64,000 nucleotides of DNA from Spirochaetia bacterium (GTDB lineage: Bacteria; Spirochaetota; Spirochaetia; G963692905), in NCBI GenBank assembly GCA_965261245.1, contig OZ253446.1:2069587-2133586 (forward strand), written 5' to 3'. Shown in pieces: positions 46,091-46,687 of the stretch (position 1 is the first letter of the stretch; each line of letters begins with the position of its first letter). The notes under the pieces are model-generated. The model did no database searches, was not told where the DNA came from, and was given only the letters and a program-made list of their open reading frames with translations. The translations under genes and the position numbers were made by a program.

Positions 46091-46147
46091 GGTGGCGAAT
46101 GCACCGCATAGAGAGCGTAGCGAACGTTATGCGGTGCCAACAACCAG
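46091..46147 (+). repeat. 57-bp direct repeat with embedded hairpin, copy 1
   Basis: GGTGGCGAATGCACCGCATAGAGAGCGTAGCGAACGTTATGCGGTGCCAACAACCAGA; exact second copy 540 bp downstream. Confidence 0.7.
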
Positions 46148-46148
46148 A

Positions 46149-46178
46149 TTTGACACACGCCCCCGCGGGTAGTATACT
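46149..46178 (+). promoter_or_regulatory. Sigma-70-type promoter (TTGACA-18 nt-TATACT) for a leaderless small gene
   Basis: Consensus -35 TTGACA; -10 TATACT; ATG at 46185 lies 7 nt after the -10. Confidence 0.5.
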
Positions 46179-46184
46179 ACTAGT

Positions 46185-46601
46185 ATGGCACCAGCAGTAA
46201 TAACAAAAGCCCAACAACAGGAACTCGCCGCCGTAATGGTTCCTTTGTTACGAAAACAATTAACCGCAGACGTCTTGAAAGCAGCCAAACTCTCCCCCCA
46301 CCCGGCACCCAAGACCAGGGCAAAAAGCACCACCACCTCTCGCGACATCCCCATAGAACTCCTTGAACGCATGATCCGCGTCGAAGAAGAGTTAAAACTA
46401 GTACATGTTGAAATAAATCACCTCCGCGCCGACACGAATCTGCTCCGTAAAGATTTCATGGGTCAAATTGACAGAATCGACAAACGCCTTGAGCACATAG
46501 AGAATACATCTAACAAAAGCCTTAATTCAATGCGTTGGTTTATGGGCATCATTTTCGTAGCTACCGCGTCATTGATTACCGTATATCAATTTCTTAACTA
46601 A
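46185..46601 (+). CDS. Small coiled-coil protein with C-terminal transmembrane anchor
   Basis: Heptad-like central region; C-terminal TM WFMGIIFVATASLITVY; flanked by 57-bp direct repeats. Confidence 0.45.
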   Translation: MAPAVITKAQQQELAAVMVPLLRKQLTADVLKAAKLSPHPAPKTRAKSTTTSRDIPIELLERMIRVEEELKLVHVEINHLRADTNLLRKDFMGQIDRIDKRLEHIENTSNKSLNSMRWFMGIIFVATASLITVYQFLN

Positions 46602-46630
46602 CCAATCCCGCCTTGGTGGCTGAGCCCCCC

Positions 46631-46687
46631 GGTGGCGAATGCACCGCATAGAGAGCGTAGCGAACGTTATGCGGTGCCAACAACCAG
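46631..46687 (+). repeat. 57-bp direct repeat with embedded hairpin, copy 2
   Basis: Identical to 46091-46147. Confidence 0.7.

Follow-up and report, generated by a model that had tools for sequence, protein, structure and literature searches.

A perfectly repeated 58-bp hairpin element around a small coiled-coil gene of a Spirochaetia bacterium probably belongs to a dispersed, lineage-specific repeat family

Two identical sequences, oriented alike and placed on either side of one small gene, raise the question of whether they delimit a unit that can be excised or duplicated, or whether they stand there for another reason. The locus lies in a stretch of 64,000 nucleotides from a Spirochaetia bacterium (the whole stretch is called the window hereafter). 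An earlier note on this DNA had described the sequences as 57-bp direct repeats that bracket the promoter and the coding region of the gene, and had proposed that recombination between them could remove or double what they enclose. Reading of the sequence, a repeat finder and a pattern search agree on an exact direct repeat (Table 1) whose copies start 540 bp apart. The identity and the spacing are therefore as described, and both the promoter, TTGACA-17-TATACT, and the open reading frame (ORF) are between the copies; only the length needs correction, to 58 bp, as an A at 46148 and 46688 is common to both. We consider it probable that the pair represents two copies of an expanded-loop subtype of a lineage-specific, GC-rich hairpin family, shuffled between similar spacers, and not a cassette.

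Chance can be excluded as the origin of the 58-bp pair, since none of 100 dinucleotide shuffles of the window gave any extra match. Near-identity extends somewhat further, with 64 of 67 positions (96%) shared between 46087-46153 and 46627-46693. No third full copy is present within the 64 kb, where the best additional match is a partial one of 13 bp. Each copy contains the inverted repeat GCACCGCATA / TATGCGGTGC, and the hairpin pointed out earlier, with its stem of 10 bp and its loop of 17 nt, was found in both by sequence reading and by the repeat finder. The predicted folding energy of the repeat with its flanks (69 nt) is -26.6 kcal/mol for RNA (z = -3.2) and -15.8 kcal/mol for DNA (z = -3.7), and the RNA fold includes an additional outer CUGGU/ACCAG helix that closes the entire element. 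Both copies are located 30-50 nt past the stop codons of same-strand genes, and a single nucleotide separates the end of copy 1 from the -35 hexamer of the small gene's promoter.

A search with the 3' part of the repeat leads to a dispersed family of the form AATGCGCCGC-(3-4 nt)-GCGGCGCCAACAA(C/G)CAGA, whose consensus can also be written as AATGCGCCGC-loop-GCGGCGCCAACAAsCAGA and whose hairpins are often followed by GCTACCCCCCGTCGC-NNNN-GTAAAG. The window contains eight members, the two copies included (23809, 33774(-), 43553, 46101, 46641, 46870(-), 61206 and 61294). All eight are intergenic, spread over five intergenic regions; each has ...AATG to the left of its 7-bp GC stem and carries the tail CAA[ACT]AA.CAGA. 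Compared with the generic form, the 58-bp subtype carries a 23-nt insert in place of the 3-4-nt loop, and the ends of this insert, ATA/TAT, lengthen the stem to 10 bp. In addition, one stem pair is changed on both sides from G-C to A-T, the 7-bp core of the copy 1 hairpin, GCACCGC/GCGGTGC, being a compensatory variant of the family stem GCGCCGC/GCGGCGC. A second subtype, GCGCCGT/ACGGCGC, presents another double change, from C-G to U-A.

When 19 members from the window and from related strains are compared, all 133 cells of the 7-bp stem are paired (100%), a count that includes inherited changes and amounts in effect to two independent compensatory events. In 500 shuffles neither the pairing nor the covariation score came up to the observed value, and the signal was lost in slid controls. 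Since the stem is paired throughout and two of its pairs have changed on both sides, the family hairpin is evidently under structural constraint. A covariance model (R1) built from these 19 members scores copies 1 and 2 at 47-50 bits and gives 25 strong matches over ~110 kb from this lineage. Two more distant genomes with homologs of the neighbouring Glug proteins (L019, of 31% GC, and L020; 44 kb in total) yielded no family member with the same model, so that the family would be lineage-restricted, as far as compared. Furthermore, Rfam 15 returned only two tRNAs in the whole window at the gathering threshold, and only one chance match to a long non-coding RNA in 45900-47300 at the E-value threshold. 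A scan for AATGCACCGC-N(3-30)-GCGGTGCCAAC in a genome collection of 185,579 species, which does not cover the source genome, gave 14 single matches in unrelated organisms, approximately the number expected by chance. Searches for the repeat in viral contigs, plasmids and phages found nothing, and the same was true of JGI metagenome scans with the DNA pattern of the repeat and with a profile of the small-gene protein. Within its own lineage, the family appears to fill the long intergenic regions of the 2.34-Mb genome, and generic units are arrayed there with a period of ~88 bp, in numbers that differ by strain (one versus five, and two versus four).

The related strains come from one ENA metagenome, ERZ26694059. 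L001 and L018 are the orthologous loci of a first and a second strain (contigs of 1.61x and 3.97x, respectively), L002 is a paralogous small-gene locus, and L017, L021 and L022 are other regions of related strains. In L001 there are 21 differences from the window in ~1730 bp around the locus and both copies are intact; that no change falls in the 116 repeat bp is not significant at this divergence. In L018, copy 1, the promoter and the gene are present (581 of 588 positions identical over 46042-46629, 98.8%), and the segment that comprises copy 2 is replaced by a 95-bp mosaic. This mosaic is made of short motifs that we call A and B boxes, and it ends in a generic family hairpin, GCGCCGT-cacc-ACGGCGC-CAACAAACAGA; past it, the homology picks up again (426 of 444 positions, 96%). 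The ORFs that overlap the repeats (46069-46200 and 46632-46928) were rejected as genes; the second of them, called as a gene in L001, is without its start region in L018.

None of the three orthologous loci (window, L001 and L018) presents zero or two units of 540 bp. The excision or duplication envisaged in the earlier note thus finds no support in the three loci, all with one unit, the sole polymorphism being the replacement of copy 2. What survives of that proposal is that the region is recombinationally active, copy 2 being different by strain, and not that the repeats are the ends of a dedicated excisable cassette. The small gene does vary in copy number, from one at the window locus to three in tandem in L002. 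However, the tandem units of L002 match each other exactly from the -35 hexamer, their spacers consist of 23-bp repeats, and these spacers keep just the last 16 nt of the 58-bp repeat. Since the units start to match at the -35 hexamer and have other spacers, the 58-bp element is not the boundary of the array unit. Taken together, a unit neither lost nor doubled in three loci and an array that uses other spacers indicate that the 58-bp repeats are not the ends of a dedicated cassette; they are members of the dispersed family.

L002 has a further copy of the element (730-805), upstream of the gene of an 806-aa protein paralogous to the large surface proteins of the window. It is identical to the repeat at 58 of 58 positions and differs by one 18-bp insertion. 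In L002 the copy is followed by the same module (806-902) that follows copy 2 in the window, and as this order of element and module recurs, copy 2 and at least 97 bp downstream of it constitute a paralogous upstream module of the large genes. The two modules are ~92% identical (89/97), in contrast to 58/58 in the adjoining element; at 8.2% divergence, the probability of finding no difference in 58 positions is ~0.007. Either conversion or selection, consequently, appears to keep the element uniform. Outside the small-gene locus and L002, no other copy of the 58-bp subtype is present in the window or in ~50 kb of non-overlapping related-strain sequence.

Two side observations concern this copy and its module. 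The 18-bp insertion in L002 (747-765) is a small palindrome, CCGCAC-tgcca-GTGCGG, bounded by the 5-bp direct repeat CCGCA, which suggests that the loops of these elements grew by hairpin-templated or slippage events. In the module 3' of copy 2, the window presents a 23-bp tandem duplication at 46760-46805 (CAAGCTCAGTCTACGGTCTTTCG / CAATCTCTGCCTACGGTCTTTCG), where L002 has a single unit.

The junctions of the element can be followed to other spacers. The right junction of copy 1 (...CCAGA followed by TTTGACAC) recurs in L002 before the third tandem small gene (4363-4390), where the element is represented by no more than its last 16 nt (the C box, GGTGCCAACCACCAGA). The right junction of copy 2 (...CCAGA followed by GTCGAAGCCCC) recurs at 28812-28777(-) of the window and at 790-816 of L002. 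Because the C box is joined at paralogous sites both to the promoter and to GTCGAAGCCCC, the two right-hand (3') junctions of the copies are apparently old. The left end of the identity tract is GGTGGC, the hexamer that also opens the A box, GGTGGCTGAGCC, which is found at 43430 and 46614 and, in L002, at 928 and 4294, past small-gene stop codons and elsewhere. The right end is the box GGTGCCAACNACCAGA, found separately in other spacers, and the C box on its own precedes the promoter of the third gene of L002. That both ends of the tract match boxes standing alone in sister spacers fits a gene-conversion tract anchored on shared micro-homologies.

What has been observed directly is the repeat, its membership of the family, the constraint on the hairpin, the copy in L002 and the strain polymorphism of copy 2; the mechanism behind the pair is best explained as gene conversion. 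According to this explanation, copy 2 would be part of a larger module, of at least 155 bp, upstream of large Cys-rich/Glug surface-protein genes, and copy 1 would be set directly against the promoter of the probably leaderless small gene. The perfect identity of the copies would result from non-reciprocal homologous recombination between paralogous spacer modules, the converted tract being anchored on two short boxes that the spacers already had in common, with GGTGGC at its left end and GGTGCCAACNACCAGA at its right. The repeat pair would then be a by-product of repeat shuffling, and the hairpins, if they act at all, may do so by forming stable stem-loops where the transcripts of the 816-aa gene and of the small gene end. 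As a side effect, the 58-bp identity would provide RecA with a substrate for deleting or duplicating the 540-bp unit, an event that was not seen.

Several points weigh against this explanation. The identity of the element between paralogous loci beside a module diverged by 8% (P ~0.007) could reflect selection that includes the loop, and the element may have a specific function, for example as a protein-binding site or as an RNA element. Gene conversion is read here from the sequence patterns of three strains, which are compatible both with a gain of copy 2 in the window lineage and with its loss in L018. Moreover, the copy counts of the 58-bp subtype refer to the window and the related-strain loci, and the search for a RAYT transposase mentioned below refers to the window, so that such an enzyme may be encoded elsewhere in the 2.34-Mb genome.

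The alternative that best withstands the evidence, although we regard it as doubtful, is that the hairpin of 58-62 bp, loop included, is a functional site whose copies are kept identical by purifying selection and not by conversion. It could be a factor-dependent terminator without U-tract or an insulator, a 3' stem-loop that stabilises the RNA of the 816-aa gene and of the small gene, or the binding site of a regulator common to the small genes and the large surface-protein genes. The contrast between element and module just cited speaks for such a site, as do the stability of the predicted structure and the position of both copies shortly past same-strand stop codons. Moreover, L018 keeps a hairpin, although of another family member, at the equivalent place 3' of the small gene, and copy 1 and the member at 43541-43595 both lie just 5' of a -35 hexamer. 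On the other hand, other members of the family occupy divergent promoter regions or run antisense to the genes on both sides, L002 tolerates 18 extra bp within the element, L018 is without copy 2 and has the gene intact, and Rfam gives no match. The palindrome does not resemble a typical operator either, as 10-17-10 is not a usual operator geometry. Inspection of both strands by eye revealed no convincing sigma-54 or sigma-70 promoter inside the element.

An intrinsic (Rho-independent) terminator was rejected, since the stem is followed by CAACAACCAGA on one strand and by ATTCGCCACC on the other, neither with a U-tract, and the terminator scan did not report the hairpin. This absence, together with the members in divergent or antisense positions, argues against termination as the general role of the family. 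Nevertheless, most genes of the window also are without canonical terminators, so that a non-canonical 3' stem-loop role may apply to the hairpin; this, with a protein-binding role, is the main rival. A separate hairpin just past the stop codon of the 816-aa gene (46050..46076) has a CACCGC/GCGGTG core in common with the 58-bp repeat, and is likely the 3' stem-loop of that gene, as predicted from its fold.

A bolder form of this idea, which we consider unlikely, takes the 62-bp element (CCCYGGTGGCGAATGCACCGCATAGAGAGCGTAGCGAACGTTATGCGGTGCCAACAACCAGA) as a discrete functional unit. It may be a sequence-specific regulatory or RNA element that ties the large Cys-rich surface proteins and the small, leaderless coiled-coil membrane proteins together in their expression, or it may be a non-autonomous hairpin element that is still active and is mobilised by an enzyme yet to be discovered. 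In either version, a letter-perfect element at paralogous loci beside DNA diverged by 8% would be explained.

It seems distinctly unlikely that the pair delimits an amplifiable or excisable unit, in which RecA-dependent unequal crossing-over or looping-out between the repeats would set a small-gene copy number that varies in the population. An exact direct repeat of 58 bp at a distance of 540 bp is sufficient for homologous recombination, the copy number of the gene family varies by locus (one here, three in L002, and at least five paralogs in the genome), and other arrays of the hairpin family differ in unit number between strains. Nevertheless, exactly one unit is found in all three orthologous loci, where the only difference is the replacement of copy 2 and not the loss or gain of a unit, and the tandem units of L002 begin to match at the -35 hexamer and have spacers made of different 23-bp repeats. 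There is also no remnant of a second gene after copy 2: a tandem duplication was rejected as the source of the pair, the identity ending at 46148/46688 and tblastn finding no second gene copy in the window.

Finally, it is extremely improbable that the repeats are attC-like sites of an integron-type cassette or copies of an actively transposing element similar to MITEs (miniature inverted-repeat transposable elements) or REPINs: the sharply defined ends in three sequence contexts, the weak terminal complementarity CTGGT...ACCAG that closes the structure, and the apparent splitting by copy 2 of a motif, GGTGGCTGAGCC followed by GTCGAAGCCCC, that is contiguous at 43430-43454 and at L002 928-951, are outweighed by the older paralogs of both right-hand junctions, by the absence of a target-site duplication (no flanking bases are duplicated in the three contexts), by the lack of further subtype copies in the sequence covered, by the fruitless searches of plasmids, phages, viral contigs, metagenomes and genome contigs, and by the absence of a tyrosine recombinase or a Y1/HUH transposase among the ORFs scanned in the 64 kb. 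An integron cassette was discarded because no R''/R' cores (RYYYAAC / GTTRRRY) were found by regular expression on either strand of a 63-bp element, no Phage_integrase domain was found in ~35 ORFs, and the small gene has a strong promoter of its own, cassettes being normally promoterless. There are only two repeat sites, between two large chromosomal genes, and no integron-type array. A terminal-inverted-repeat element was likewise discarded, as it would have just the 5-bp CTGGT/ACCAG complementarity and no target-site duplication, and a MITE/REPIN reading appears unlikely when judged on the window and the related-strain loci. Pfam scans of ~35 window ORFs gave no site-specific mobility enzyme, and the sole transposases of the window are two IS481-like rve genes at least 10 kb away.

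Table 1. Features of the repeat locus and of the hairpin family in the window
Feature	Position	Strand	Remarks
Copy 1	46091..46148	+	GGTGGC + hairpin + GGTGCCAACAACCAGA; kept in all three orthologous loci
Copy 1 hairpin	46101..46137	+	GCACCGCATA/TATGCGGTGC, 10-bp stem, 17-nt loop
Sigma-70-type promoter TTGACA-17-TATACT	46150..46178	+	11/12 consensus positions
Small gene, 138 aa	46185..46601	+	coiled coil and hydrophobic C-terminal anchor
Post-stop tail and A box (CCAATCCCGCCTTGGTGGCTGAGCC + CCCC)	46602..46630	+	block common to paralogous small-gene units
Copy 2	46631..46688	+	present in window and L001; replaced in L018
Strain-variable segment, 126 bp (C + copy 2 + 67 bp)	46630..46755	+	95-bp mosaic in L018
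Module 3' of copy 2 (GTCGAAGCCCC...CGGTCTTTCGCAA)	46689..46785	+	recurs with the repeat at L002 806-902, 89/97 identical
Partial third copy, 13 bp (GCGAATGCACCGC)	46817..46829	+	end of adjoining minus-strand generic repeat unit
Generic member (AATGCGCCGC-tta-GCGGCGCCAATAAGCAGACGCTACCCCCC)	46856..46909	-	covariance model, 64.4 bits
Separate 10-bp-stem hairpin GACACACCGC-tgctaa-GCGGTGTGTC	46050..46076	+	just past stop of 816-aa gene
Generic member	43541..43595	+	directly 5' of -35 hexamer of the promoter of the 816-aa gene
Generic member, stem variant GCGCCGT/ACGGCGC	23797..23851	+	5 tandem units here in a related strain (L017)
Generic member	33760..33814	-	intergenic
Two tandem generic units, ~88 bp apart	61194..61335	+	4 units in a related strain (L018 5217-5532)
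Degenerate paralog of copy 2 end junction (GGTGCCGACGCCCAGA, then GTCGAAGCCCCAGTCTCAAAA)	28777..28812	-	C box only; upstream of 880-aa Cys-rich gene

Regarding the gene enclosed by the repeats, its ATG is placed 6 nt past the -10 hexamer and has no Shine-Dalgarno sequence, and for these reasons its mRNA is probably leaderless. The block from promoter to ATG is kept in the paralogs (L002 3795-3830 and 4382-4417), and the TTGACA-17-TATAAT-6-ATG geometry is also found at the upstream 816-aa gene and at the small gene at 23948. As a side observation, the recurrence of this geometry without a Shine-Dalgarno sequence in the window (43591-43629, 46150-46187 and ~23912-23956) suggests that this organism makes frequent use of leaderless transcripts; a normal AGGAGG leader is seen at other genes, for example at the start at 28716 (-).

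The small protein consists of a conserved N-terminal half, a coiled coil whose number of repeats differs among paralogs, and a hydrophobic C-terminal anchor. Profile searches against Pfam, NCBIfam, PHROGs and PDB assigned it to no family and gave generic coiled-coil matches alone, and its relatives form only five clusters among 5.8 billion proteins. The source genome has at least five paralogs (P0003, P0005, P0006, P0007 and P0012). In the public annotation the gene begins at an internal Met, and the listed product (P0012, 76 aa) is exactly the C-terminal 76 residues of the 138-aa ORF. The paralogs show high conservation of the 62 codons upstream of the annotated start, and the first ATG directly adjoins a consensus promoter; the true product is therefore probably the 138-aa protein, and the gene should be taken as mis-called. 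A second case of tandemly duplicated small coiled-coil membrane proteins is observed at 23948-24301 and 24372-24668 (117 and 98 aa; units 71.5% identical). These proteins have an N-terminal membrane helix and a coiled coil of DKRFDDV-type repeats, and the pair adjoins a repeat of the hairpin family.

The ~88-bp unit of the generic repeats is satellite-like and can be described as the hairpin followed by CAACAAGCAGA(C)GCTACCCCCCGTCGC-NNNN-GTAAAG-ATATTAAGTCATAA. Such units are found in the window at 23700-23900, 33700-33950, 46840-46960 (-) and 61100-61400, and in the related strains at L017 2380-2830 and L018 5217-5532. The NNNN positions are hypervariable, and it is precisely at these positions that L001 and the window differ in clusters (46850-46857 and 46940-46945).

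The large genes beside the locus encode secreted proteins of one large paralogous family, which is marked by CxxDxxC-type Cys-rich repeats (DUF7107 / Dickkopf-like) and by Glug motifs. Its members in the window are located at 43591-46041, 26074-28716, 47164-50133, 8343-11294, 59-2230 and 50222-52930; a member of 989 aa has repeated WVAVG-type blade motifs, and the family has 538 homologs, mostly in uncultured relatives. The number of repeats differs by strain, the protein of 816 aa in the window (43591-46041) corresponding to one of 655 aa in L001 (3529-5496). Another repeat, of ~200 bp, is present in copies that are 75-89% identical (window 13465-13684, 28889-29055 and 43084-43303; L002 540-720), upstream of three large Cys-rich/Glug genes and beside the point where an IS481-like transposase gene (12325-13323, -) begins. 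Either a solo end of an insertion sequence (IS) or a shared upstream homology region may account for it.

Differences in gene content between strains were also observed elsewhere in the window. An IS481-like transposase gene (rve_3, 55805-56848, -) and a tRNA (55648-55719) are situated between the genes of an aldo/keto reductase and a sigma-54 activator, and the equivalent place in L018 (9759-10001) is a 241-bp gap with no gene called. L017, compared with 21052-26034 of the window, has an identical TatD protein with different neighbours: on one side, fn3-domain proteins take the place that in the window is occupied by the small coiled-coil genes and by a TPR/FRG protein, and ~1.2 kb more are found between the TatD and YjeF genes. 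Accessory genes thus appear to turn over at repeat-rich spacers.

As for annotation, neither att sites nor a cassette should be assigned to the pair. Because the hairpins and their ~88-bp tandem units vary in number among closely related strains, they could be used for strain typing in this poorly sampled lineage. The modular shuffling of spacers beside large paralogous surface-protein genes suggests frequent gene conversion, which could matter for surface variation.

The locus can be compared with several known systems. An integron cassette with its attC site also consists of a small gene followed by an imperfectly palindromic site of ~60 bp, with similar sites on both sides; here, however, there are no RYYYAAC/GTTRRRY cores, integrase, attI or array, the gene has its own consensus promoter, and one strain carries another sequence downstream. 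The upstream homology boxes and paralogous gene families of spirochaetes, for example the bdr/erp/mlp loci of Borrelia, present a resemblance: multi-copy small proteins with a conserved N-terminus, variable central repeats and a C-terminal membrane anchor, among mosaic, recombining intergenic modules. Nevertheless, the searches revealed no described family of similar sequence, and the loci studied here are chromosomal and not on plasmids.

The mycobacterial interspersed repetitive units (MIRU) are variable number tandem repeats (VNTR) with units of 40-100 bp at many intergenic loci, in short tandem arrays whose unit number differs between strains. The hairpin family shares this character through its ~88-bp unit and its strain-variable arrays (1 vs 5 and 2 vs 4), although the 58-bp pair itself forms no tandem array. 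A GC hairpin is not what defines MIRU, some of which are translated as parts of operons.

The REP, BIME and REPIN repeats of Proteobacteria share several features with the family, being short, GC-rich, imperfectly palindromic and intergenic, present in many copies that are often clustered, with a hairpin kept by compensatory change. REPINs are defined as REP doublets in inverted orientation that form a long hairpin (PMC3337134), whereas the members described here are single hairpins with a 7-bp stem and loops of 3-4 nt, standing alone or as head-to-tail units of ~88 bp. The flanks AATG and CAACAAsCAGA also differ from the GTAG-type 5' tetranucleotide of REP, the lineage and the sequence are unrelated, and no RAYT (Y1/HUH transposase) was found among the ORFs scanned in the window. 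The effects of REP/BIME and REPIN sequences on the host, such as mRNA 3' stabilisation and attenuation, are thought to be incidental (PMC3337134, PMC3116915). What characterizes REP-type repeats, many intergenic palindromes with a conserved hairpin, is found here as well, with eight copies per 64 kb and 25 strong model matches in ~110 kb. The finding opens no long-standing question and belongs to ordinary repeat biology: the 58-bp subtype and its family appear to be newly described here, and in kind they resemble the REP/BIME and MIRU repeats already known.

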